Positions 2,673-44,898 of a DNA stretch of 64,000 nucleotides are shown here, piece by piece. This stretch comes from an uncultured Anaerolineales bacterium (GTDB lineage: Bacteria; Chloroflexota; Anaerolineae; B4-G1), in contig CAZHAX010000003.1 in assembly GCA_964530325.1 (NCBI GenBank), positions 11,409 to 75,408 of the forward strand, written 5' to 3'. Under the pieces are notes generated by a model. That model worked only from the letters and a program-made list of their open reading frames with translations, was not told the origin of the DNA and made no database searches. How positions within the stretch are numbered: position 1 is the stretch's first letter; every line of letters begins with the position of its first letter. The position numbers and the translations under genes were made by a program.

Positions 2673-4367
<1,695 letters not shown>

Positions 4368-4369
4368 GC

Positions 4370-5881
4370 ATGCCCCCTCGCGTTCGCTTTGCCCCCAGCC
4401 CGACCGGCGAAGCTCACATCGGCAACGTGCGCACGGTAGTGTTCAACTGGCTCTATGCGCGAGGCCAGGGCGGCCGTTTCGTCCTCCGAATCGAAGATAC
4501 CGATAGGATGCGCTACCGGCCGGAGAGCATTGCAGCCATACTGGACGGGATTCGCTGGCTGGGGCTCGATTGGGACGAGGGGCCGGGCGAGGACGAGCTC
4601 AGAGAGGCGGGGGTCGAGCCTGCCGGCGAGTACGCCGTGGGAGGGCCGCACGAGCCATACATCCAGTCTCAGCGCCTGCACCTCTACAGGGAGACGGCCG
4701 CGCAGCTGATCCGGCTTGGCGCCGCGTACCGCTGCAACTGCACACCCGAGCGGCTCGAGCGCGTGCGCCAGGAGCAGCGGGAGCGCAAGCTGCCGGTGAT
4801 GTACGATCGCCACTGCCGGGACCTGCCCGCAGGCGCCGTCTCGCCGGACGAGCCTCACGTCGTCCGGCTCAAGGTGCCTCTCACTGGCCGGACCGTCGTG
4901 CCGGATATCATCAGGGGCGACGTCGCCTACGACAACGCCGGCATCGACGATCAAGTCTTGCTCAAGACAGACGGCTTCCCCACCTACCACCTGGCGGTCG
5001 TTGTGGACGACCACGACATGGAGATCACGCACATCATTCGCGGCGAGGACTGGATGTCCAGCACGCCCAAGCGCATCCTCATATACGACGCTCTGGGATG
5101 GCAGCGCCCGGCCTACTGCCACGTGCCCCTGGTCTTGGGGGCTGATGGAAAGCCGCTTTCGAAGCGGCATGGTGCCACTGGCATCAGCCAGTTCCGGCGT
5201 CAGGGGTACCTGCCGGAGGCGCTCCTCAACTTCCTGGCCCTGCTGGGCTGGGCGCCGGGGGAGGGAGAAGAACAGGAGATCTTCAGCCGGGACGAACTGA
5301 TCGAGCGCTTCGATCTGCGCCGCGTGAGCAAGGCAGCCGCGGTCCTTTCCTACGAAAAGCTAGACTGGATGAACGGTGTCTATATCCGCGCCCTGCCCCA
5401 GGATCAGCTGCTCGACCGCCTGCTCCCCTTCTGGCAGGAGGCGGGGCTCGTGCCTGACCCCTGCCCGGAGGATGTGCGGGCGTCCCTCGCCGATCTGGTG
5501 CCGCTGGTGCAGGAGCGCCTGGCCAGACTGGATCAGGTCGTCGACTGGACGCGCTTCCTGTTCCAGGAGATCGAGACGCCGCCGGCGGAGATGCTCGTGG
5601 GGAAGAAGATGACCGCCTCAGAGAGCCTGAAGGCGCTGAAGGCAGCCCGGGCCGTGCTCGCCGGCGCGCAGCCCTACGACGCGGAGACTCTGGAGAAGGA
5701 AATGCGCGCGCTGGCGGACGGGGAGGGCCTCAAGGCGAGCCAGCTGTTCGGCCTCGTCCGCTTCGCCACCACGGGGCAGAAGGTGGCCCCACCCTTATTC
5801 GGATCGCTCGCCTTCCTGGGGCGGGAACGGACCCTGTCCCGCATGGATGCAGCCGCCGAGGTCTTGGCCGCCGCGGTCTAG
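4370..5881 (+). CDS. gltX: Glutamyl-tRNA synthetase
   Basis: ATG at 4370, two nt after the glnS TGA. The longer ORF from 4052 would overlap glnS. 'RFAPSPTGEAHIGNVRT', 'FVLRIEDTD', 'KPLSKRHG'. Confidence 0.9.
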   Translation: MPPRVRFAPSPTGEAHIGNVRTVVFNWLYARGQGGRFVLRIEDTDRMRYRPESIAAILDGIRWLGLDWDEGPGEDELREAGVEPAGEYAVGGPHEPYIQSQRLHLYRETAAQLIRLGAAYRCNCTPERLERVRQEQRERKLPVMYDRHCRDLPAGAVSPDEPHVVRLKVPLTGRTVVPDIIRGDVAYDNAGIDDQVLLKTDGFPTYHLAVVVDDHDMEITHIIRGEDWMSSTPKRILIYDALGWQRPAYCHVPLVLGADGKPLSKRHGATGISQFRRQGYLPEALLNFLALLGWAPGEGEEQEIFSRDELIERFDLRRVSKAAAVLSYEKLDWMNGVYIRALPQDQLLDRLLPFWQEAGLVPDPCPEDVRASLADLVPLVQERLARLDQVVDWTRFLFQEIETPPAEMLVGKKMTASESLKALKAARAVLAGAQPYDAETLEKEMRALADGEGLKASQLFGLVRFATTGQKVAPPLFGSLAFLGRERTLSRMDAAAEVLAAAV

Positions 5882-5905
5882 CGGCGTCCCACCCGCCACC
5901 CCGCG

Positions 5906-6562
5906 CTAGCCCAGGCTCTTGCGCAGCGCGGCCACATTCTCGGCCACCGTCCCCCGTTCGTTGAAGATCGCAGAGCCGCACACCATCATCGATGCGCCGG
6001 CCTGTGCCGCCAAAGGCGCGGTGTCTGGGTAGATCCCCCCGTCGACGCCGATCGGGACATCCAGGCCCATGTCGGCCAGCATGCTGCGGAGCTGCCGCAC
6101 GACGTCGAGCTGCCCCGGAATCAGCCCCTGCCCGCCGGCACCGGGCGCAACGGTCATCACCTGCACCATGTCGACCAGGCCGAGGGCATCGACGAGCACG
6201 GCTGGCGCGGTGCCCGGCCGGATCGCCACGCCCGTCTCGACACCCAGCTCGCGCACAGCCTCCAGCACGGTCATCGGCTCTGCGGTCGACTCCCAGTGGA
6301 CGATGAGGCGGTCCGCCCCGGCCTCGGCGAACGCCTCGATGTGCCTCTCTGGCTCGACGATCATCAGGTCGACATCAAGCATCACCTTCACCAACGGCCG
6401 CAGCGACCGCACCACGCCCGGACCAAAGGTGATCGCCGGCACATAGCGCCCGTCCATGACGTCGATCTGGATACCGTCGACACCGGCGTCGGCGGCCTGG
6501 CGCGCCTGTTCTCCCAGACGGGCATAGTCGGCGGCGAGCATGGAGGCTTCGAGCAGCGCCAT
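5906..6562 (-). CDS. rpe: Ribulose-phosphate 3-epimerase
   Basis: 'IQIDVMDGRYVPAITFGP' and the overall Rpe TIM-barrel sequence; 218 aa. Confidence 0.85.
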   Translation of the reverse strand: MALLEASMLAADYARLGEQARQAADAGVDGIQIDVMDGRYVPAITFGPGVVRSLRPLVKVMLDVDLMIVEPERHIEAFAEAGADRLIVHWESTAEPMTVLEAVRELGVETGVAIRPGTAPAVLVDALGLVDMVQVMTVAPGAGGQGLIPGQLDVVRQLRSMLADMGLDVPIGVDGGIYPDTAPLAAQAGASMMVCGSAIFNERGTVAENVAALRKSLG

Positions 6563-6582
6563 TGTTCTCCTCTGGTGCGTGT

Positions 6583-7275
6583 TCAGGACCCGCCCTTGAG
6601 GTGCCGGACGCCTTCAGCGGTTCCCACCAGCACGTCAGTCGCCAGCCCGATGAACAGCCCGTGGGCCACGATGCCGGCACGCCCGTCGAGCAGGGCGGCC
6701 AGTTCCTCCGGCCTATCGATCGGCTCGAGCCGGCAATCGACGATCAGATTGCCCTCATCCGTGGTGAAGGGCGATCCATCACCCAGTCGGCGCACCTCAG
6801 GCCGGGCGCCGAGCGACTCAAGGTAGGGCAGCTCTGTGCCCAGGGCGAAGGGGATGACCGCAACCGGGAGCCGGAATCGGGTGCCCAGCGCAGGCGAGAG
6901 CTTCGTCTCGTCTACCACAATCACCAGGCGGCGGCTCGCCTGGGCCACCACTTTCTCCCGCAGAAGGGCCCCACCCCCACCCTTAATCAGATTCAGATGG
7001 GGGTCGACCTCATCCGCCCCGTCAATCGTCAGGTCGATGACCGGATGCTCCCCCAGCGTGGTGACTGGGATGCCCAACTGTCCCGCCTCCGCCTCAACGT
7101 GCAGCGAGCAGGGCACACCTAGCACACCGTCCAGCTTCCCTTCGCGGATCAGCGCGCCCAGGCGCCGCAGCGCCATCGTCGCCGTGCTTCCGTGGCCCAG
7201 GCCCACGACCATCCCCGGCCTGACGGACTCAACCGCCTGCTCCGCGGCCAGCCGCTTCAGCTGATCAATCTCCAT
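6583..7275 (-). CDS. rpiA: Ribose-5-phosphate isomerase A
   Basis: 'VVGLGHGSTA' and 'KGGGGALLREKVVA' motifs. The start is taken at the internal Met 'MEIDQLK'; the ORF extends to 7320. Confidence 0.8.
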   Translation of the reverse strand: MEIDQLKRLAAEQAVESVRPGMVVGLGHGSTATMALRRLGALIREGKLDGVLGVPCSLHVEAEAGQLGIPVTTLGEHPVIDLTIDGADEVDPHLNLIKGGGGALLREKVVAQASRRLVIVVDETKLSPALGTRFRLPVAVIPFALGTELPYLESLGARPEVRRLGDGSPFTTDEGNLIVDCRLEPIDRPEELAALLDGRAGIVAHGLFIGLATDVLVGTAEGVRHLKGGS

Positions 7276-7861
7276 TGCCCCAGCCCGGCTTCTCCCGATC
7301 GCCCTCGCGCGCCTGCGCATGCTCCTCTAGCTCCACCCCCAGCCCGCTGACGATCCGCGTGGCGAACGCGAAGTAGGCGGTGATCTGAGCTATGTCCAGT
7401 ATAGCCCGATCGCCAAACCCCTCCTCGCGCAGCGCGCCGACGTCCTCCCGGGTCACCGCCTGCTGGTCGCGCGTCAGTTTGGCGGCATAGTCCAGCATCG
7501 CCCGATCCGCACTGCTCAGCTGCGCCCGGCGGTGGTCCTGCTTCAGCTGACTCACCAGCGCGTCGTCGTCGACCAGTCTGCGGAGAGCCTCCCCGTGATG
7601 CGCTGCTCAGTAGTGGCAGCCGTTGAGTGCCGAGACGACCGTGCCGATCATCTCGCGCTGGTACCTCTTCAGCGGCGACCGGCCGAACATCAGAGTGCGA
7701 TACAGAGCGCGGTGGTCGATCATCGACCGTGGATTGAGGCTGTGCACCTTCATTATGTTCGCCACTCGCCCGGCCAGGCCGGCGCAACACTCGTAGGCGG
7801 CTGCCAACTCCGCTTCCGCCTCCCCCTCGTCTACAACCTCAATCCACGCTGCTTCAGGCAC
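7265..7861 (-). CDS. AhpD/carboxymuconolactone-decarboxylase family protein with an in-frame TGA at the CxxC motif (candidate selenoprotein, or nonsense allele)
   Basis: ORFs 7607..7861 and 7265..7555 are in the same frame. They are separated only by TGA at 7607-7609, which follows 'NGCHY'. Read through, the motif is NGCHY-U/C-AAHH, the AhpD-like CxxC position. Confidence 0.6.
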
Positions 7862-8507
7862 GACTCAGCTCCCCCATTTGCTCCAGGGCTTTCTCAGCTC
7901 CCCCAGCAGCGCGGCCCAGCATCCGCCAGCGGATGATAGTCGCCGCCAGCAGCAGGCCGGAGATCAGCAGTATCGCCGCCGAGAGTGCCCAGGCCGGCGC
8001 GCCGAGAGCCACAAGCGCGCTGTATGCCTCGGCGTACATCATACTCCGCCAACCCAGGAGCGCAAGCGACGTGTGCCAGAAGACGTCCAGCCACGAGAAG
8101 CAGAAGCCTACGACCAGCAGCTGCATCCACCTGCGCCGCGGCGGTCGGGCCCAAAGCGCAGCTTGGAAGATCAGAGCCAGGCCCAGCGTGCTTAGGCTGC
8201 CCGCAGACCGCATCCAGTGATCTGCGATTTCGGGAAGGCTCCTATCCAGCCAGACGCGCCCAAAGTATCCGGAAGCGTGCTCGAAGCGCAGGCTGGGATA
8301 GAGGTCGAGCCCCAAGACGTTGAGGCGTTCCACCCGGGCACCGAAGGCAATGCCCGCCAGTGCGTGGCCGCACTCGTGGATCAGAGTGCCCACCGCGAGG
8401 ACGACAAACGCGATAACGACCGCGCCTGCCACCCAGGCCAGCCGTCCTCCCCAAACCGCCAACCTCTTGCGCAAGGCCATACCCAGGCTAACCGAAATCG
8501 ATCGCAC
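7854..8507 (-). CDS. Membrane protein with an HExGH zinc-metalloprotease motif (M50-like)
   Basis: 'LIHECGHALAG' sits in a predicted TM helix, with several further hydrophobic segments. Confidence 0.45.
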   Translation of the reverse strand: MRSISVSLGMALRKRLAVWGGRLAWVAGAVVIAFVVLAVGTLIHECGHALAGIAFGARVERLNVLGLDLYPSLRFEHASGYFGRVWLDRSLPEIADHWMRSAGSLSTLGLALIFQAALWARPPRRRWMQLLVVGFCFSWLDVFWHTSLALLGWRSMMYAEAYSALVALGAPAWALSAAILLISGLLLAATIIRWRMLGRAAGGAEKALEQMGELSRA

Positions 8508-8620
8508 AGCGCCCTGTAAGCGCCGAAGCTAACCCGGACCCGGGCAAAGCCGAGCCTCCCTCGGTGCAGACCGCGGGAGGCGTTGAGGCTCGCATTGCCC
8601 GGGTCATCAGCCGGCAGGGG

Positions 8621-9349
8621 CTACGCTGCGCCCAGGTAGGCCCGCCGCACATCCGGGTTCTTGCGCAGCTCGTCCGCTGTTCCTTCCAGGACCACCCTGC
8701 CCGTCTCCAACACGTAGCCGCGGCTGGCGACGGAGAAGGCCATCAACGCGTTCTGCTCGACGAGCAGAATGGTCGTGCCCTCTTCGTTCAACTGCCTGAT
8801 CACGCGGAAGATATCCTCCACCAGCAGAGGGGCCAGCCCCATCGACGGCTCGTCTAGCAGCAGCAGCCTCGGGTGGGCCATCAGCGCCCGTCCGATGGCC
8901 AGCATCTGCTGCTCGCCGCCGCTCAGCGTGCCTCCCACCTGCTTGATCCGCTCCTTCAGCCTGGGGAACAGAGTGAAGACGCGCTCCATATCCGCACGAA
9001 TGCCGTCTTCATCGTCCCGACGGAAGGCTCCCATTTCCAGATTCTCCAGCACAGTCAGCCGGCCGAAGATACGCCGACCTTCAGGTGCCTGCGACACCCC
9101 CCGGGTCACTATCTCGTGCGCAGGCAGCTCGGAGATGTCGTTGCCAGACAGCGTGATCCTGCCCTGCCTCGGCCGCAGCAGGCCGCAGATGGTGTTCAGG
9201 ATCGTGCTCTTGCCAGCGCCGTTGGCGCCGATGAGCGTGACTATCTCGCTCTCCTCCACCGTCAACGAGACACCTTTCAGAGCGTGGATGTTGCCGTAGT
9301 AGGTGTGGACGTCGCTGACCTCGAGCATCGTCACCATTCCTAGTTCCAA
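8621..9349 (-). CDS. livF: Branched-chain amino acid ABC transporter ATP-binding protein (LivF-type)
   Basis: Walker A 'GANGAGKST', an ABC signature, and Walker B 'LLLLDEPS'. Confidence 0.85.
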   Translation of the reverse strand: MELGMVTMLEVSDVHTYYGNIHALKGVSLTVEESEIVTLIGANGAGKSTILNTICGLLRPRQGRITLSGNDISELPAHEIVTRGVSQAPEGRRIFGRLTVLENLEMGAFRRDDEDGIRADMERVFTLFPRLKERIKQVGGTLSGGEQQMLAIGRALMAHPRLLLLDEPSMGLAPLLVEDIFRVIRQLNEEGTTILLVEQNALMAFSVASRGYVLETGRVVLEGTADELRKNPDVRRAYLGAA

Positions 9350-10119
9350 CCCCTGCCAGCACCGCGCCCGAGGTACGCCTCTATCACCTCAGGGCTGCTC
9401 TGGATCTCGTCCGGCGTTCCCTCGGCAATCTTGACCCCGTAGTCCAGCACCGAGATGCGTTCCGAGATGTTCATCACCACTCGCATGTCGTGCTCGATGA
9501 GCAGGATCGTGATCCCCAGCTCGTCGCGCAGCCGGCGGATGAAGCCGATCATCTCTGTCGTCTCAGACGGGTTCATCCCTGCCGTCGGCTCGTCGAGGAG
9601 CAGCAACGTGGGCTTGCAGGCCAGGGCCCGGGCGATCTCGAGGCGACGCTGGTCTCCGTAGGGCAGGTTCTTGGCGAAGACCTCCTCCTTGCCTCCGAGC
9701 CCGACAAACTGCAGCAGGCGCCGCGCCTCTCGCTCGGCGGCCTCCTCTTCCCGTCGCGTGCGACCCAGCCCCAGCACTGCCCCGGGCAGGCCCGAATGCA
9801 GCAGGTGGTGCTGCCCGACCAACACGTTCTCCTGCGCCGTCAGGTTGTTGAACAGGCGGATGTTCTGGTAGGTGCGGCCGATACCCATCGACGCGATCTG
9901 ATCAGGTCGCTTTTCGTTGAGCAGCACACCGTCGAAGTAGAGCGAGCCCTCTTCAGGCCGGTAGGCGCCGGCCACGCAATTGAACAGGGTCGTCTTGCCC
10001 GCTCCGTTCGGGCCGATTATGCTGGAGATGCTCAACTCCGGCACGTCCAGATCGACTGAACTGACAGCCGTCAGTCCTCCGAAACGCTTTGTCACGCCGT
10101 CAGCTTGCAGGATGGTCAT
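9340..10119 (-). CDS. livG: Branched-chain amino acid ABC transporter ATP-binding protein (LivG-type)
   Basis: Walker A 'GPNGAGKTT', 'LLLLDEPTAGMNP', and a LivG-like C-terminus. Confidence 0.85.
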   Translation of the reverse strand: MTILQADGVTKRFGGLTAVSSVDLDVPELSISSIIGPNGAGKTTLFNCVAGAYRPEEGSLYFDGVLLNEKRPDQIASMGIGRTYQNIRLFNNLTAQENVLVGQHHLLHSGLPGAVLGLGRTRREEEAAEREARRLLQFVGLGGKEEVFAKNLPYGDQRRLEIARALACKPTLLLLDEPTAGMNPSETTEMIGFIRRLRDELGITILLIEHDMRVVMNISERISVLDYGVKIAEGTPDEIQSSPEVIEAYLGRGAGRGWN

Positions 10120-22309: not shown

Positions 22310-22452
22310 TCTTCTGCTCTACGATCGCTCCGCAGTGGAGGCTGGCCAGCGCATTCCGCGGGCCGACCGCAGGATTGTAGTCGACCGTGCTCGTTTGTCA
22401 ACCTGCACGGAATGCCTATAATGTCTACAACCGTGCAGCGCACAGGGACAGC

Positions 22453-23394
22453 ATGGTCCGTTTCGACACGCCGATCAACGCCGACGACACAAGCTTCAAG
22501 CGTGTAGTGCTTGAGGCTCCCTTCCCGGTGGTGGCGGTCTTCTGGTCCGCGCAGGATGCTTCCAGACGCCGACTCAACACCACCCTTGATGAAGTTGCGC
22601 GCCTGTACGCCGGTGAGGTACTGGTCGTCAAGCTGGATGTCGCAGACTCCAAGCGAGCTCAGCTCAAGTACTCCGTGCACGGTGTTCCCCAGTTCCTGCT
22701 CTTCCAAGACGGCGCTCCGATGGCACGAGTGCAGGGGGTACCGACGGTTGAGATGCTGCGGCCGTGGATCGAATACCTGCTCGGCCGAGCGGACAAGCCG
22801 GCGCAGAGGCGGTCTCGCGCCTCGCGCGATGAAAGGCCATCGCCGAAGGGCACGACCGGGCGCCGGCCGAAGCCGAAGCCAGAGCCCGAGCCGGAGCCAG
22901 AGCCGCAGCCAGAGCCGAAGCCAGAGCCCGAGCCGGAGCCAGAGCCGCAGCCAGAGCCGAAGCCAGAGGTTGAGCCTGAGCTGAAGCCCGAGCCAAGGCC
23001 ACAAGCGGCCAAGAAGATGATACGTCGAGAACAGCCTCCTGGTATGTCAGAGGAGCCGGCAATGGAGGGTGCTCCCGTCACCGTCACCGACGCCGACTTC
23101 CAGTCGATAGTCCTGGACGCGGACAAGCCTGCTCTGGTCTTCTTCTGGGCACCGAGTGCCCCCGCCTGCGAGCAGGTTCGCCCTATCGTGAAGGCGATCT
23201 GCTGGGAGTTCTCCGGCCGGCTCGTCGCCGCGCAGATGGACGTGGACGCAAACCCCCGCACACCCAGCCAGTTCGGGGCCCAAGTAGCCCCTATAGTGGT
23301 CGTCTTCGCTCAGGGCGCCCCCGTGGAGGTCGCTGCCGATCCCAAGTCAGTGCGGGCCCTGCGCGGCAGGATGAGAACGCTCGTAGGCGATTAG
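22453..23394 (+). CDS. Two thioredoxin-fold domains with degenerate active sites joined by a (PEPEPx)n linker
   Basis: Domain 1 has 'VFWSAQDAS' with no Cys. Domain 2 has 'FFWAPSAPAC', an SxxC. They are separated by KPEPEPEPEPQPEP repeats. The start is taken at 'MVRFDT'. Confidence 0.6.
   Translation: MVRFDTPINADDTSFKRVVLEAPFPVVAVFWSAQDASRRRLNTTLDEVARLYAGEVLVVKLDVADSKRAQLKYSVHGVPQFLLFQDGAPMARVQGVPTVEMLRPWIEYLLGRADKPAQRRSRASRDERPSPKGTTGRRPKPKPEPEPEPEPQPEPKPEPEPEPEPQPEPKPEVEPELKPEPRPQAAKKMIRREQPPGMSEEPAMEGAPVTVTDADFQSIVLDADKPALVFFWAPSAPACEQVRPIVKAICWEFSGRLVAAQMDVDANPRTPSQFGAQVAPIVVVFAQGAPVEVAADPKSVRALRGRMRTLVGD
22868..22995 (+). repeat. Near-perfect 42-nt tandem repeat (2.x copies) encoding the KPEPEPEPEPQPEP linker
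   Basis: Direct repeat of GCCGAAGCCAGAGCCCGAGCCGGAGCCAGAGCCGCAGCCAGAG, visible in the sequence. Confidence 0.8.
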
Positions 23395-37964: not shown

Positions 37965-39329
37965 CTAGAACGTCACGCAGGTGACGTAGCAGGCGACGTT
38001 CTTCTCCGTCGACTCCAGGTTGAATGCCCAGACCGACCAGGTGTTGGCCGTGGTGATCTGGCTGCTGTAGAACCGGGTGACGCCCGCCTGGCCGACGAAC
38101 CCACCGCCGGTCGCCAGTCCGGTCGGGCAGGTGCAGGTGGCGTTGCCGGAGCCGTGTGGGCCCACGGAGCCCCACACCTTCTCCTCGTACGTCGTGCCGC
38201 TGGTGCCGGAAAGGCAGATCGCGTGTGCTGTCAGCGCGTTTACCGAGCTCTCCGTGTTGTTCGCGTACACCCGCCAGCCGTTCCCGGAGGCCCGCGAGCT
38301 GGCGTAGACGTGCTGGCTGCCGTCGTAGTCGATGCCCCATCCGCCGCCGGTGATGATGCTTCCGGCAGGACACCAGGCCACAGCGCTGGCCCAGCCGCCG
38401 GGCTGCACCTCCACGGTTCGGGCCACCGTCGTGACCGAGCCGGAGACGTTCGTGAGGCAGGCTGCCCGGACGATCAGGACCTGATCTGTGGTCGAGTGAT
38501 TCATGGCCGAGACCTTCCAGCCATCTGCGGTCTTCAAGTTGGCGTGGACCACCATGGACCAGTGGGTCAGGTAGCCGCCGCCGACCACCAGGCTGCCCTC
38601 GGGGCAGACGGCAGTTATCGATCCTGAGTAGCCAGGCGCGATCTGAATCCGCCTCTCATCCCAGACGATGCTGGGGAAGAGAGCGGGCACAACCGTCATC
38701 ACTGGCGGCGCCAGCGTCATCAGAGGTAGGGTGGTAGCCGCAGGCGTGGCTGTTGCGGCCGCCGGCGTAGCCGGCGGTGGCTCCGGGCTGGGCACCACGA
38801 TCTGCACCCAGAACGTGGACCCAAACATCTGCGCCTCGGCCGACCTCATCCGCCAGTCGCCCCGATGCGTCCCGTACGTCGTCGGCGCAGCAAGATCAGC
38901 GGTGACGTCCACCGTGGCCCCCGCCGCCGTCTCCGGCACCGGCACGGACGCCGGCCCGCCCATCTGCTCCCCAGACACGAAGACGAGCTCGAAGCCAGGA
39001 CCCCAGTCGCACGTACCCGTGTTCTGGATTCGCCAACCCTTCACGAAAGCCGCCCCGGGCGCCATCTCCGTGTCGTCCGGTATGGTGATGTCGGCCACGT
39101 AGGACGCGTTCAGCGTGCAGTCCCCCGCCTCCACGTCCTCCTCGGCAGTGGGGGTTGCCGCAGCTTCACCCGCCTCTTCGGCAGTCCCGTCCGGCGTGCG
39201 TGTGGCGTTCTCATCCGCCCCGGCGCCGCCTAAGAGCTCCTGGAGAGGCGCGCAAGCCGGCGCTCCCAGGAGCACGACTGCGAGGACGAGCACTACCACC
39301 ACCCGCGGCCCTCTCCTTCCACTCAACAT
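37965..39329 (-). CDS. Secreted NBR1-type FW domain protein with three C-terminal Cys-bracketed GGG/NGW repeats (paralog A; lacks the Ig-like domain)
   Basis: Signal peptide ending 'LLGAPAC'; FW domain 'CTLNASYVADITIPDDTEMAPGAAFVKGWRIQNTGTCDWGPGFELVFVSG...FGSTFWVQIVV'; a PT linker; repeats 'CPEGSLVVGGGY', 'CPAGSIITGGGW...NGWRVYANN', 'CPTGLATGGGF'. Confidence 0.75.
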   Translation of the reverse strand: MLSGRRGPRVVVVLVLAVVLLGAPACAPLQELLGGAGADENATRTPDGTAEEAGEAAATPTAEEDVEAGDCTLNASYVADITIPDDTEMAPGAAFVKGWRIQNTGTCDWGPGFELVFVSGEQMGGPASVPVPETAAGATVDVTADLAAPTTYGTHRGDWRMRSAEAQMFGSTFWVQIVVPSPEPPPATPAAATATPAATTLPLMTLAPPVMTVVPALFPSIVWDERRIQIAPGYSGSITAVCPEGSLVVGGGYLTHWSMVVHANLKTADGWKVSAMNHSTTDQVLIVRAACLTNVSGSVTTVARTVEVQPGGWASAVAWCPAGSIITGGGWGIDYDGSQHVYASSRASGNGWRVYANNTESSVNALTAHAICLSGTSGTTYEEKVWGSVGPHGSGNATCTCPTGLATGGGFVGQAGVTRFYSSQITTANTWSVWAFNLESTEKNVACYVTCVTF

Positions 39330-39368
39330 CCCGCACCTCCATCAGTCGGTGTAGCTCTCATCCCCATG

Positions 39369-39394
39369 AACGGAGCGTCCGCCCACTTTGTTAC
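39369..39394 (-). promoter_or_regulatory. ECF-sigma-type promoter GTAAC-N17-CGTT upstream of paralog A
   Basis: Conserved in sequence and spacing with the paralog C and D promoters. It lies about 40 nt upstream of the ATG, and a GGAGGTG RBS follows. Confidence 0.5.
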
Positions 39395-39496
39395 GCCAGG
39401 TCGCCTGACATCCTGGGGACAGCACGGCAACAAGCGGGCTCCGGGTTGGCTGAGCCGCCCCGGGTCCCAAGCACTCCGCGCCGGCCCGCTCAGCTC

Positions 39497-41091
39497 CTAC
39501 GGGAACGACAGGCAGATGGCGTAGGCGTTGGGCGGCTTGTCAGTTCCACTGCTGTTCTGGGCAAACACGTTCCACTCGTTGCCCGTGAACAGCTTGGTAG
39601 AGGTGTTGTAGACGTATGCTAGGGTCCCTCCCGCAAACCCGCCCCCGACGGCCAGGCTGCCCTCCGGGCATGTGGCGATCACGCCCCCGTCTCGTGGCCG
39701 CCGACGCTGCCACCGTTGCCGACCTCCGTGGTGCTACCGCTCGTGCCGGACAGACAAGCCGCGTAGACGGCAAACGTCTTGTCCTCGCCGCCCCCGTTCC
39801 TGGCGCGCGCCCCCCAGCCGTTGCCTGACACACGGCTGCCGTAGACCTGCAGGCTGCCATCGTGGTCGGACGCCCATCCGCCGCCGGTGACGACGCTGCC
39901 GGGCGGGCAGGTGACCTCCGGGGTCCCGTGCCATCCCGCCTCCACCGTCACCGAGTAGTGCGCCTCGGTCACGGATCCGCCTGTGTTCGACAGGCAGACA
40001 GCATAGACGTTCAGCAACTTGCTCACGCCAGCGTTGTTCTTGGCCCAGGCTTGCCAGCCATCGCCGTGCTGGGAGTGGCTGTAGACCAGTACGTCGGGAT
40101 GGGCGGCATACCCACCGCTAACGGGCAGGCTGCTGCCGGGGCATTCCACCGTCGCTTGGCCGATGTCGCCCGAGCCGATCGAGATCTGGGAGTAGATCTG
40201 TTCCACCTGCACCGGGAGGAAGGGCGGTATCATAGGCGTGGTCTGCGGCGGCAGCATGGTCATGATCGGCACGTCCAACGTCGGCGTAGCCTCCGGCGCG
40301 GCCGTCGCCGGGCTGGGCACCACGATCTGCACCCAGAACGTGCTGCCGAAAGGCCGCCCCTCGTCGGATCGCATCTGCCAGTCACCGCGGTGCGTGCCAT
40401 ACGCCGTCGGTGCTTGCAGATCGATCGCTAGATCCACCGTCCCGCCGGCGACCGTCTCGGGCAGCGGGATCGAACAGACGCTGCCCATCTGGACCCCCAG
40501 CACGAAGACGAGCTCGAAGCCCGGGCCCCAGTCACACGTGCCGCTGTTCTGGATCCTCCAACTCTTGGTGAACGATGCCCCAGGCGCCATCTCCGTGTCG
40601 TCCGGGATCATGATGTCGGCCACGAACGAGGCGTTCAGAGTGCAGCCTTCCGCCTCCACATCCTCCACCGGCGTCGGGCTGGGCTGGGCCACGCCCTTCC
40701 TCACCCTCAGCGTGATCGTCGCCTATTCCGATGCCTGCCCCTCCGCATCGTAGGCAATCACCGAAACCCGCACCTCGCCCTCTTCCTCGGGCACCCACGA
40801 CTGAACCAGGCGAAAGGTCGTCAGATTCTCTTCCGGAGGCTCCGCCTCCCGCACCACCTCCCCATCGATCAACAACTCCACCCGCGCGATCCCCACGTCC
40901 GACGTCGATACCGACGCGATCTCCACCGTTCGTCCCACTCCCACACGGGCCCCGGTGGCCGGCCTGCTGATCTCCACGCTCGGCCCGCCGTTGGCCAGCA
41001 TGTCCTCCAACGGGGCACAGGCCAACACAGTCAGGAGGAGAAGGAGCACCAGCGATGAGACAGCTCGCACCCCGCTCTTGTGGCGCAGCAT
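39497..41091 (-). pseudogene. Disrupted paralog B of the Big_7-FW-repeat family (in-frame TAG plus C-terminal frameshift)
   Basis: Three ORF pieces (40723..41091, 39679..40704, 39497..39682) are colinear with paralogs C and D. TAG at 40723-40725 replaces a residue in 'ASE-A-ATIT'; there is a frame change near 39680; the upstream -35 GTAAC is lost. Confidence 0.7.
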
Positions 41092-41347
41092 AGCACACCT
41101 CCTTCAGTCAATCGAATGAACGGCCTGTCGGCCCGCTTTCCCAGGGCCTCGCACCGCACGGTCGCTGCTCGTGGGGCTCAAGCCGAGACGAGTGGGGAGT
41201 CCGGATTGTCGCCGTCGTCGGAGTGGAGATGGGCGCGCGGGTCTGGGGGTTGGAAGGTGTGGAACGAGGGGCAGTATCAGCACGAAGGTCGTCGATCACA
41301 CCATCATCAGCTTACGCCGGTATGGACCGTATCGCAAACGAGAACCC

Positions 41348-41377
41348 AGCCGGGGCGGCCCCCGGGCCGCCCCGGCT
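41348..41377 (-). terminator. Perfect GC hairpin downstream of paralog C
   Basis: AGCCGGGGCGGCCC / GGGCCGCCCCGGCT, 14-bp stem. Confidence 0.5.
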
Positions 41378-41424
41378 CCTCACCTCTCCACAGTCCTCTC
41401 GCCCATCATTCCCACCGAGCGCTT

Positions 41425-43053
41425 CTACGGGAACGACAGGCAGACCGCATAGGCGTTGAGACCCTTGCTGGATCCAGAGGAATTCCTGGCATATACGATC
41501 CATTGGTTATCCGAACCCGGCTTGGGCGACGTGTTGTAGACACGCAGGTCGGGCCCTCCCGCGAAACCGCCACCGGCCGCCAGGCCGTCCCCGCTGCAGG
41601 TGGCGACCACATAACCCGTGCCACTGCCGGCAATCGAGCCGCCGCTGCCCTCCTGGGTGGTCGTGCCGGTCGTGCCGGAGAGACAGAGGGCATAGGCCTT
41701 GACATACTTGGTGGACCCTGTGTTGTTCTTCGCATACACCTGCCAGCCGTTGCTGGACTTGGAGCTGTTGTAGACGTGCAGGCTCCCGTCCGCGTACGAG
41801 GCCCATCCTCCGCCGGTGACGACGCTGCCCGCCGGGCAGGCTGCGATCGGGTGGCCGACGCCTCCCGCTGCCACCGCCACCTGCTCGGATACCTGGGTCA
41901 CGCTGCCCGCCGTATTCGAGAGGCACACGGCGTACACGCTCAGAGTCTTGCTCGCGCCGGCGTTGTTCTGGCCGTATACCCGCCAGCCGTTGCCCACCTT
42001 GAAGTGAGTGTACACCAGGACGTCAGGATGGACGGCGTACCCACCACTGACGACCACACTGCCCGAGGGACAGCTCGCGGTCTCCCAGCCGATATCGCCG
42101 GGGTCGATGGAGACCTGCTCTAGCACAGTCGCGACGGACGGTTGGAACAAAGGAAGCGCAGTGATGATGATCGGACCCAGCGTGAAGATCGGCATGAACC
42201 AGGTTGGTGTCGGCCAGGGCGTGTCGGTCGGCAGCGGCGTCGGCGTCACCGTCGGCGTCGCCGTCGGCGGCGCAGGGACGATGATCTGCACTGAGAGAAC
42301 GGCACCGAAGATCTGCCCCTGGTCCGAGCGCAGCCTCCACTCGGCGGAGTGCGTGCCGTAGGTCATCGGCGCCTCCAGCTGCACGCTCAAGTCGACAGTA
42401 TCGCCCGCTGCCGTGGGCGGCACAGGAACGGACGCCGGCCCGCCCATCTGATCGCCGCTGGCGAACACCAGGGTGAACCCGGCACCCCAGTCACAGGTTC
42501 CGCTGTTCTGCACTCGCCAGCCCTTGATGAACGGTGCGCCCGGAGCCACCTCCGTGTCCGCCGGTATCGAGACGTCGGTCACGAAAGCCGCGTTCACCGT
42601 GCAGGCGGCGGGGGCCTCCGTCGGGGTTGGGGTCGGCGTGGCCGCCTCAGCGGCACCGGCTCCGACATTCAGGATCACGGTCGCCTCATCCGACGCCCGC
42701 CCCTCGCTGTCGTAGGCCACCACCGAGATCTCCACTTCACCCTCCGCGTCCGGGAGCCAGGTCTGCACCAGGCGGAACGTGCTCGGATTCCCGGAGGGTG
42801 GTGTGCTCTCCTGCACCACATCGCCGTCCACGAGCAGCTCCACACGTGCTATGCCGGCGTCGGCGGTTGAAGTAGAGGCGATCTCCACCGCTTCCCCGAT
42901 CTCGGCTGTCGCCCCGCTGGTCGGGCTCGTTATCTCTACGCTCGGCCCCAGGTCGACGACCAGCCCCTCCAGGGGCGAGCAGGCGAGTGCCGTGACGAGC
43001 AGCACCAGCACCAGTAGCGAGAAAGCTCTTGTCCTACTCTTGCTGCGCAACAT
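41425..43053 (-). CDS. Secreted Big_7 Ig-like + NBR1-type FW domain protein with three C-terminal GGG/NGW repeats (paralog C)
   Basis: Start at the Met preceded by an AGGAGGTG RBS. Signal peptide 'LLVLVLLVTALAC'; Big_7-like 'VEITSPTSGA...VELLVDGDVV...VVAYDSEG'; FW domain; a PT linker; three repeats ending '...AYAVCLSFP'. Confidence 0.8.
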   Translation of the reverse strand: MLRSKSRTRAFSLLVLVLLVTALACSPLEGLVVDLGPSVEITSPTSGATAEIGEAVEIASTSTADAGIARVELLVDGDVVQESTPPSGNPSTFRLVQTWLPDAEGEVEISVVAYDSEGRASDEATVILNVGAGAAEAATPTPTPTEAPAACTVNAAFVTDVSIPADTEVAPGAPFIKGWRVQNSGTCDWGAGFTLVFASGDQMGGPASVPVPPTAAGDTVDLSVQLEAPMTYGTHSAEWRLRSDQGQIFGAVLSVQIIVPAPPTATPTVTPTPLPTDTPWPTPTWFMPIFTLGPIIITALPLFQPSVATVLEQVSIDPGDIGWETASCPSGSVVVSGGYAVHPDVLVYTHFKVGNGWRVYGQNNAGASKTLSVYAVCLSNTAGSVTQVSEQVAVAAGGVGHPIAACPAGSVVTGGGWASYADGSLHVYNSSKSSNGWQVYAKNNTGSTKYVKAYALCLSGTTGTTTQEGSGGSIAGSGTGYVVATCSGDGLAAGGGFAGGPDLRVYNTSPKPGSDNQWIVYARNSSGSSKGLNAYAVCLSFP

Positions 43054-43094
43054 ACCACACCTCCTGTTGTGACCAAGGTTCACTCATGCTCATG

Positions 43095-43120
43095 AACGGA
43101 ACCTCGGTCCCGGTTGTTAC
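43095..43120 (-). promoter_or_regulatory. ECF-sigma-type promoter GTAAC-N17-CGTT upstream of paralog C
   Basis: TGTAAC...CGTT with the same spacing as paralogs A and D. Confidence 0.5.
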
Positions 43121-43236
43121 ATTGCCCGGCGGAGCCGCCCGGCATCGACGCTGCCGCCGTTATGTCCACACGGTATCCTACGGTTCCAGTATACGACCTG
43201 CGCGCCTCGCTGGCAAGCGAGACCTGGCCGTGGACG

Positions 43237-43274
43237 CAGTGAGCCGGGGTGGCTAGTGCCGCCCCGGCTCACTG
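43237..43274 (-). terminator. Perfect 13-bp-stem hairpin downstream of paralog D
   Basis: CAGTGAGCCGGGG-N12-CCCCGGCTCACTG. Confidence 0.5.
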
Positions 43275-43308
43275 CTCTTGGGCAGGCTTGTGCGTCCCTA
43301 CCTGACGA

Positions 43309-44898
43309 TCAGAAGGTCAGGCAGTCCGCGTAGCAGTAGAAGTTCCTGGAAGAGGTGTCCGTATTCCGACCCCAGTTGCTCCATTGGCCGGAGACGGACA
43401 GGTCCGGGGACGTGATGTAGAGCTTGGCGTACTGGAACGGCCCGGCGAAGCCCCCGCTCACGTTCAGCCCGCTGGAGCAGGAGCACTCGACCTCACCCAC
43501 ACTGCCGGCTCCCAGGCTGATCGAGTTCGTCACCTCGGAAACGGAGCCGGTCGTGCCCTCCAGACAGATCGCCCGCGCTACCACGCCCGAGTTGCCGCTG
43601 CCGGTGTTGAAGGCATAGACCTCCCAGCCGTTGCCGAACTTGGAGCTGTTGTACACGTGCATGTCGCCGGTGGGCAAGACCGCCCAGCCGCCGCCCGTGA
43701 CGACGCTCCCGGCGGGGCACTCGGCCACCGCCTTGCCCCAGTTGCCCGGCGTCACTGAGACGCTGGAGCTCGTGACCATCGATGTAGTACCTGAGACATT
43801 CCTCAGGCAGACCGCGTGCACGGTCATCGCCAGATCGGACCCGCCGTGATTCCAGCCCGCGCCGCGCCAGCCATCGCCGGACTTGTAGTGGCTGTAGACC
43901 TCGACGTTCCAGTGCACGTCGTAGCCGCCGCCGACGACGAGCCCTCCGCCGGGGCATGCGGCGGTGGTCGCCGCCCAGGTGCCGGCCGGCACCGTCACCG
44001 TCGCGCTCACGTGCTGAGTGTACGGCAGGAAGACCATGAATGTGGGGGCGATCATTGTTATGAGCGGCATAGACCAGGTCGGGGTCGGCGTCGGCGTATC
44101 AGCCGGCGTCGGCGTCACCGTAGGCGGCGCGGGAACCACTATCTGGACCCAGAACGTGGAGCCGAACATCTGCGCCTCATCAGACCGGGCTCGCCAGTTG
44201 CCCCGATGCGTGCCGTAGGTCGTAGGAGCTTCCAGCTCAACGCTGACGTCCACGGTGTTTCCGGCGGGGGTTGGTGAAATCGCGACCGAAGCCGGCCCGC
44301 CCATCTGATCCCCGCTGACGAAGACCAGCTCGAAGCCGGGACCCCAATCGCAGGTCCCGCTGTTCTGTATCCTCCATCCCTTCACGAAGGAGGCTCCGGG
44401 CGCAATCTCGGTGTCGTCCGGGATCGTGATATCGGCCACGTAAGAGGCATTCAGCGTGCAGCCCCCGATCTCGACATCCTCCGCCGGCGTCGGCGTCACG
44501 CCGGCCGCGGCTTCGCCGACGAAGATCGTGATCGTTGCCGCCTCGGACGCCCGCCCTTCGACGTCGTAGGCCACCACAGACACCGTCACCTCGCCTTCCG
44601 CCAAGGGGACCCACGCCTGCAGCAGGCGGAAGGTCGGCGGGTTGCCCGCCGGCGGTTCGTCCCGGCGGACCACAGCGCCGTCGACCAGGAGCTCGACCCG
44701 GGCCAGGCCGGCATCTGCGCTGGAGGTGGAAGCGATCTCCAGCGTTTCCCCAACCTGCACCGTGAGCCCACTCGCGGGCCCGGTGATCTCTGTGCTGACC
44801 GTATCCTCTCCCAGAAGCGGCCCGCAGGCCAGAGACGCCAGTAGAACAACCAGCGACGCGCCCCTCGACGCCCGCAACCTTCTCGTCTCACTCGGCAT
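43309..44898 (-). CDS. Secreted Big_7 Ig-like + NBR1-type FW domain protein with three C-terminal GGG/NGW repeats (paralog D)
   Basis: Signal peptide 'LVVLLASLAC'; Big_7-like domain; an FW domain nearly identical to paralog A; a PT linker; repeats 'CPGGGLVVGGGY', 'CPAGSVVTGGGW...NGWEVYAFN', 'CSCSSGLNVSGGF'; 'GAGEVGRY' RBS GAGGAGG. Confidence 0.8.
   Translation of the reverse strand: MPSETRRLRASRGASLVVLLASLACGPLLGEDTVSTEITGPASGLTVQVGETLEIASTSSADAGLARVELLVDGAVVRRDEPPAGNPPTFRLLQAWVPLAEGEVTVSVVAYDVEGRASEAATITIFVGEAAAGVTPTPAEDVEIGGCTLNASYVADITIPDDTEIAPGASFVKGWRIQNSGTCDWGPGFELVFVSGDQMGGPASVAISPTPAGNTVDVSVELEAPTTYGTHRGNWRARSDEAQMFGSTFWVQIVVPAPPTVTPTPADTPTPTPTWSMPLITMIAPTFMVFLPYTQHVSATVTVPAGTWAATTAACPGGGLVVGGGYDVHWNVEVYSHYKSGDGWRGAGWNHGGSDLAMTVHAVCLRNVSGTTSMVTSSSVSVTPGNWGKAVAECPAGSVVTGGGWAVLPTGDMHVYNSSKFGNGWEVYAFNTGSGNSGVVARAICLEGTTGSVSEVTNSISLGAGSVGEVECSCSSGLNVSGGFAGPFQYAKLYITSPDLSVSGQWSNWGRNTDTSSRNFYCYADCLTF

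Follow-up and report, generated by a model that had tools for sequence, protein, structure and literature searches.

Results

Gene Organization and Reading Frame

On the minus strand of the 64-kb stretch of DNA that was analyzed (herein the window), positions 7861..7265 can be read in one frame throughout, as 198 codons and a stop. That frame is interrupted once, by a TGA at 7609..7607 (VVSALNGCHY-[TGA]-AAHHGEALRRL); the two pieces of the ORF track, 7607-7861 (84 aa) and 7265-7555 (96 aa), both lie in this frame. Translation of 7861..7265 bears out the original prediction that the two pieces share one frame and are split solely by the TGA at 7607-7609, and its estimate of a joined length of about 198 aa agrees with the codon count. 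The coding sequence of this AhpD-like, "peroxidase-related enzyme" gene (7265..7861, minus strand; 198 residues including a predicted selenocysteine, Sec85) starts at a GTG (7861..7859, minus strand) and ends at a TGA (7267..7265, minus strand). A Shine-Dalgarno-like GGGGGAG (7869..7875, minus strand) lies 7 nt 5' of the GTG, within the 3' end of an upstream membrane-protein ORF. The read-through product runs from MPEAAW at its N terminus to GNGD at its C terminus; the N-terminal MPEAAWI agrees with that of the homolog P0001, and the C-terminal tail of 20 residues is not conserved.

In-frame TGA codons flanked on either side by 50 or more open codons were collected throughout the window (n = 150). 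The TGA at 7609..7607 has the strongest two-sided coding signal among them (GC3-GC2 of 0.38 and 0.42), so that 7861..7265 is not two ORFs that happen to adjoin. None of the other in-frame TGAs scanned made a convincing candidate, the next best belonging to antisense frames of real genes.

Genomic Neighborhood

The 3' end of the gene overlaps by 11 nt the likely ATG (at 7275) of rpiA, encoding ribose-5-phosphate isomerase (6583..7275, minus strand), which is followed by rpe (5906-6562); both genes were named from Pfam assignments to the genes called on a Logan contig (L004) that covers this part of the window. In tblastn searches rpiA lies 0.3-4 kb 3' of the Sec codon in seven related loci (L006, L008, L010, L013, L014, L015, and L016), and in five of the seven (L008, L010, L013, L014, and L015) rpe comes after it. 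Since this downstream order is shared, the Anaerolineales-type loci are orthologous.

On the 5' side, the stop of a 217-aa ORF (7854-8507, minus strand) overlaps the GTG by 8 nt. This ORF, predicted to encode a membrane protein, contains an HECGH (HExxH) motif and matches nothing in Pfam; tblastn did not find it beside the gene in related loci. Elsewhere in the window, four paralogous genes (454, 341, 552, and 529 aa; 37965-44898, minus strand) each carry an N_BRCA1_IG Ig-like domain, with signal- or lipoprotein-like N termini in the 454-, 552-, and 529-aa genes and Big_7 in two of the four. A thioredoxin-domain protein with a proline-rich linker is encoded at 22387-23394 (plus strand), and a ribosomal-protein/secY/adk/rpoA operon occupies about 53-64 kb (minus strand). 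Stop codon usage among the 58 genes called in the window is TAG 38, TGA 19, and TAA 1, which is unusually TAG-rich for a genome of 65% GC.

Protein Family and Active Site

With Cys placed at the UGA, the read-through product scores 145.1 bits against the NCBIfam model TIGR01926 ("peroxidase-related enzyme"; cut-off 81.8), residues 5-177 aligning with profile positions 1-174 of 178, and 30.6 bits against the Pfam CMD model (PF02627; cut-off 23). The closest solved homologs are PDB 2PFX (E = 1.8e-32; residues 20-176, spanning the UGA), 3C1L (E = 1.1e-30), and DR1765 of D. radiodurans (6K40; E = 1.2e-22, the alignment again running across the UGA); 2PFX and 3C1L together cover residues 13-184. 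These proteins match the window protein in length and in the motif C-x-Y-C-x-x-x-H but, unlike its predicted Sec form, are all Cys forms. A DR1765 mutant is sensitive to H2O2, and its complementation needs the CxxC motif (PMC8945050). HMMER further aligns residues 60-176 with 2ijc_A 26-142, and the protein is predicted, on sequence grounds, to adopt the all-helical AhpD/CMD fold.

In an alignment of 22 sequences E70, C82, Y84, H88, and H89 are invariant and U85 occupies the column of the second Cys. The active-site segment is encoded at 7595..7654 (minus strand), with E70 at 7654..7652, C82 at 7618..7616, Y84 at 7612..7610, U85 at 7609..7607, and H88 and H89 at 7600..7595; the in-frame UGA (7607..7609, minus strand) thus takes the second position of a C82-H-Y-U85 redox motif. 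Counted from position 85, the spacing of these residues (-15/-3/-1/0/+4) is identical to that of the AhpD proton-relay residues, which are Glu118/Cys130/His132/Cys133/His137 in M. tuberculosis AhpD (MtbAhpD) and Glu36/Cys48/Tyr50/Cys51/His55 in PA0269 (PMC3141380). The window protein has in common with MtbAhpD (Rv2429; PDB 1KNC family) and PA0269 (2IJC/2O4D) the CMD/AhpD helical fold family, the constellation Glu(-15), Cys(-3), Tyr/His(-1), Cys/Sec(0), His(+4), and presumably thiol(selenol)-disulfide exchange chemistry; it differs from them in its low sequence similarity, in having no adjacent ahpC, and in its presumed attacking residue, Sec instead of Cys.

The canonical ahpD model, TIGR00777, gives only 20.9 bits (cut-off 191.95), and no ahpC was found beside the gene, whose neighbors are the membrane-protein ORF, rpiA, and rpe. 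The window protein is therefore not an ortholog of canonical AhpD, though it probably works like one. Two further models describe CxxU selenoproteins of the AhpD superfamily, NF041238 (AhpD_rel_CFYUT; 61 bits against a cut-off of 175) and NF053654 (YciW-related; 21 against 310); as the scores lie far under both cut-offs, the window protein is a member of neither.

Conservation of the UGA Codon

Related loci were sought at the DNA level with one genome per species, and the 80 most similar were taken. At the Sec column they carry TGA in 61 cases, TGC or TGT in 17, and TTA in one, with one unresolved; the alignment of homologs suggested in the original prediction thus places Cys or an in-frame TGA in exactly the same column. 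All 23 of the closest loci have TGA, and all are from Chloroflexota (Anaerolineae, Anaerolineales, and Ardenticatenales; 56-70% identity). TGA forms also occur in Marinimicrobia, KSB1, Caldithrix, Planctomycetota, Acidobacteriota, Gemmatimonadota, Acidimicrobiales, SAR324, and Halanaerobiaceae, while the Cys forms include archaeal, Fraserbacteria, and gammaproteobacterial copies. The 95 codons 3' of the UGA are free of stops in every relative and share 44-70% identity with the window, much as the N-terminal part does (39-77%). Homology past the TGA had been put forward as an argument against a frameshift pseudogene, and the open, conserved downstream frame upholds it.

Matches from a protein-database search are mostly full-length Cys forms, so that the family looks Cys-dominated by protein search, whereas in the DNA search the nearest relatives are mostly Sec forms. 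In protein databases Sec forms appear as "W" variants or truncated ORFs because of calls that read UGA as Trp. Two homologs, P0001 (67% identity) and P0019 (48%), are deposited with W at the column and a third, P0005, with R; the underlying codons are TGA, TGA, and CGA, respectively. P0001 and P0019 are encoded by metagenome loci with TGA at the Sec column (L001:542-1090 and L002:55-645), and the W in their JGI/ENA calls is probably a gene-calling artifact of code 4 on short contigs.

In four loci the codon at the Sec column differs from TGA by one base: L003:10253 (CGA), L075:484 (TTA), L056:3673 (TGC), and L064:9305 (TGT). All four retain a strong hairpin of the type found in the window (-9.6 to -12.5 kcal/mol) and resemble copies that have recently given up Sec, unless the bases were miscalled; the Arg or Leu of L003 and L075 would take away the catalytic residue. 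Another locus, L060, has a tandem pair of genes (at 9656 and 10241) with TGA at the Sec column in both. Its upstream copy diverges right after the HH motif and is without the hairpin, and it may be a decaying duplicate.

A SECIS-Like Hairpin 3' of the UGA

The small hairpin that had been noticed about 12 nt after the UGA is real; in its best register (7595..7581) an 11-nt spacer separates it from the codon. The sequence CGGGGA-GGC-UCUCCG (7581..7595, minus strand) forms a 6-bp stem with a GGC loop at 7589..7587, running from C15 to G29 as counted from the U of UGA, with 17 nt from UGA to loop, and it is made up of the codons for H89-G-E-A-L-R94. A published model of bacterial SECIS elements (bSECIS; PMC13188914) sets rules on stem, loop, UGA-to-loop spacing, and energy; the hairpin agrees with the first three (6-bp stem, GGC loop, 17-nt spacing), and its local energy of -6.9 kcal/mol narrowly misses the fourth (-7.5 kcal/mol). 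Folds of the wider region are unremarkable: shuffled sequences fold about as stably as the 73 nt that follow the UGA (z = -0.21), and the fold of 63 nt (-21.7) is no better than its shuffles. Rfam gave neither SECIS nor any other RNA family, whether over the whole window at gathering thresholds or over 7400-7750 at E ≤ 10. A lower stem pairing p5-10 with p49-54, seen in the minimum free energy fold of the window sequence, was dropped; its position is not conserved in relatives.

Since the 73-nt fold is unremarkable, energy alone cannot support a SECIS element, and comparative analysis was used. Across 42 Sec forms of the window type, 81.6% of stem cells are paired in a 7-pair register, against 37-54% in slid registers, although the hairpin overlaps the conserved codons for HHGEALR and its conservation is in part protein-driven. 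Compensatory double changes occur in these forms (three CG->UA and nine AU->CG). In the 17 Cys forms pairing in the same register comes to 50.4%, a level that slid controls also reach. Protein conservation cannot explain a synonymous-site constraint at the third position of the Leu codon, whose partner in the stem is a G: C or U stands there in 41 of 44 Sec forms but in only 5 of 17 Cys forms encoding the same Leu (Fisher p = 1.2e-6; as in all these hairpin statistics, independence is overstated, since the loci compared are related by descent). The check proposed at the outset therefore finds a hairpin at the right distance that is kept in the UGA forms and, overall, not in the Cys forms; by this comparison it may be described as SECIS-like.

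A sub-clade of Chloroflexota with the motif U-L-K/R-H-H-A-R-N-L-R-Q-L-T (herein type B; loci L016-L019, L021-L025, L027, L033, L036, L040, L041, L044, L045, L051, L053, and L061) is without the window-type (type A) hairpin. It has instead an 8-bp stem with an AGUU loop at about +24..+43 after the Sec codon, ~10 nt further downstream. This stem is 85.3% paired, against 26-61% in slid registers, and includes a CG<->UA swap (8 vs. 7 sequences). When both types are counted, 38 of 65 Sec copies form either six or more of the 7 type-A pairs or seven or more of the 8 type-B pairs, as does 1 of 17 Cys copies.

Taken as one family, the two nonhomologous SECIS placements (type A, +15..+29; type B, +24..+43) and the hairpin-bearing Cys, Arg, and Leu copies could be snapshots of SECIS turnover and of Sec-to-Cys conversion, a tentative reading to which we give slightly less than an even chance. 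If it is true, the RNA structure and the codons of the catalytic helix co-evolve.

Alternative Readings of the UGA

The original prediction had remarked that no sel genes lie in the window, and this stands: ARAGORN found no tRNA-Sec in the 64-kb window or in 60 related loci, 20 mid-sized and large window ORFs gave no Pfam match to the SelA, SelB, or SelD families, and tblastn of the window and all loci with approximate E. coli SelD and SelB queries returned one weak GTPase match, which is LepA. Such a result would fit a UGA that is read through without selenium, either by near-cognate insertion of Cys or Trp in a host whose Sec machinery is absent or lost, or in a recent relic nearing loss or conversion; the Arg (L003), Leu (L075), and Cys (L056 and L064) copies that keep a hairpin likewise show that the site is evolutionarily labile. 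We nevertheless regard selenium-free read-through as very unlikely. The hairpin and its synonymous constraint are intact in the window and its close relatives, a pattern expected only under selection for SelB-dependent decoding; TGA is kept in all of the closest Chloroflexota relatives; and Sec-rich Chloroflexota genomes are on record (BSepDB, PMC13326102).

A still smaller probability attaches to an ordinary Cys-type AhpD-like gene in which TGC or TGT became TGA by nonsense mutation or through an error of sequencing or assembly. The lack of sel genes and tRNA-Sec in the window and the ordinary stability of the 73-nt fold would suit such an origin, but the conserved TGA effectively refutes it, being present in 61 of 80 related genomes, which span many phyla, and in all 23 of the closest relatives. 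The 95 downstream codons are open and as conserved as the upstream part, and the coding signal is equally strong on either side of the TGA. The codon itself, whose verification had been called for, recurs in a separate assembly of the same organism: Logan contig L004 (run SRR8556428) matches window positions 2797-8921 at 100% identity, TGA included.

Least credible of all is a reassigned code with UGA read as Trp or Gly, for which only the W of the deposited P0001 and P0019 speaks and which is already refuted by the normal use of TGA as a terminator in the window, where it closes 19 of the 58 heuristically called genes, the selenoprotein gene among them. The DNA of both homologs reads TGA, so that their W is a gene-calling artifact, probably of code 4, and homologs carry Cys at the column but never a genuine TGG or GGN.

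Discussion

The conserved TGA, the open downstream frame, the second assembly, and the use of UGA as a stop together exclude nonsense mutation, sequencing error, and reassignment. We conclude that 7861..7265 (minus strand) very probably encodes a Sec-containing, AhpD-like member of TIGR01926 (CMD/AhpD fold) in which UGA85 is the predicted Sec codon. The initial assignment as a candidate selenoprotein of the AhpD/CMD family is thus sustained, both by the TIGR01926 score and by the TGA of the related loci.

By the established bacterial Sec pathway, SelB-GTP-Sec-tRNA(Sec) would bind the hairpin as the ribosome arrives, and UGA85 would be decoded as Sec rather than as a stop. Homology to MtbAhpD and PA0269 suggests that the product would be an all-helical oligomeric oxidoreductase with an exposed Sec85 selenolate, activated by a His89/Glu70 relay as in AhpD homologs. 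Sec85 may then attack an oxidized partner (a peroxiredoxin-type sulfenate or disulfide) or peroxide directly, Cys82 would resolve the adduct to give a selenenylsulfide, and a reductant of the lipoyl-protein or thioredoxin type would recycle it. These roles of Sec85 and Cys82 are borrowed from distant homologs and are to be read as provisional. The original prediction had UGA in place of the "resolving" Cys, which by analogy is probably the reverse of the actual order: in MtbAhpD it is the second, exposed Cys133 that attacks, cross-linking to AhpC Cys61 in a mixed disulfide, with Cys130 partly buried (PMC6626918). In B. thailandensis AhpD the first Cys is reported to be the more important, and this AhpD may differ (PMC6626918).

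Selenoproteins of this kind are already known, as the original prediction had correctly stated. AhpD-like CxxU proteins (COG2128) were described in 2005 as a new selenoprotein family, with 27 sequences from the Sargasso Sea, by Zhang, Fomenko, and Gladyshev (PMC1088965); the GOS survey ranked "AhpD-like 1" fourth among families by abundance, with 299 sequences (PMC2398784); and a 2026 AEM review lists an "AhpD-like protein, TIGR01926, CxxU" (PMC13188914). The window gene resembles this family in its TIGR01926 membership, in a CxxU motif with Sec in second place, in its widespread Cys homologs, and in a SECIS-type hairpin inside the coding region just 3' of the UGA. It is set apart by its uncultured Chloroflexota (Anaerolineae-like) host, its 20-residue tail, and a hairpin near the lower size limit of published bSECIS elements; nothing essential differs. 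The gene is therefore an ordinary member of a family whose CxxU motif and coding-region SECIS have been described since 2005.

The main value of the finding lies in annotation. Standard gene callers split the gene into two ORFs or read its UGA as Trp; the proper annotation is a single selenoprotein of 198 residues, with a transl_except for Sec at codon 85. For the organism, the gene predicts the Sec trait (selABCD) and a need for selenium in the host Chloroflexota.
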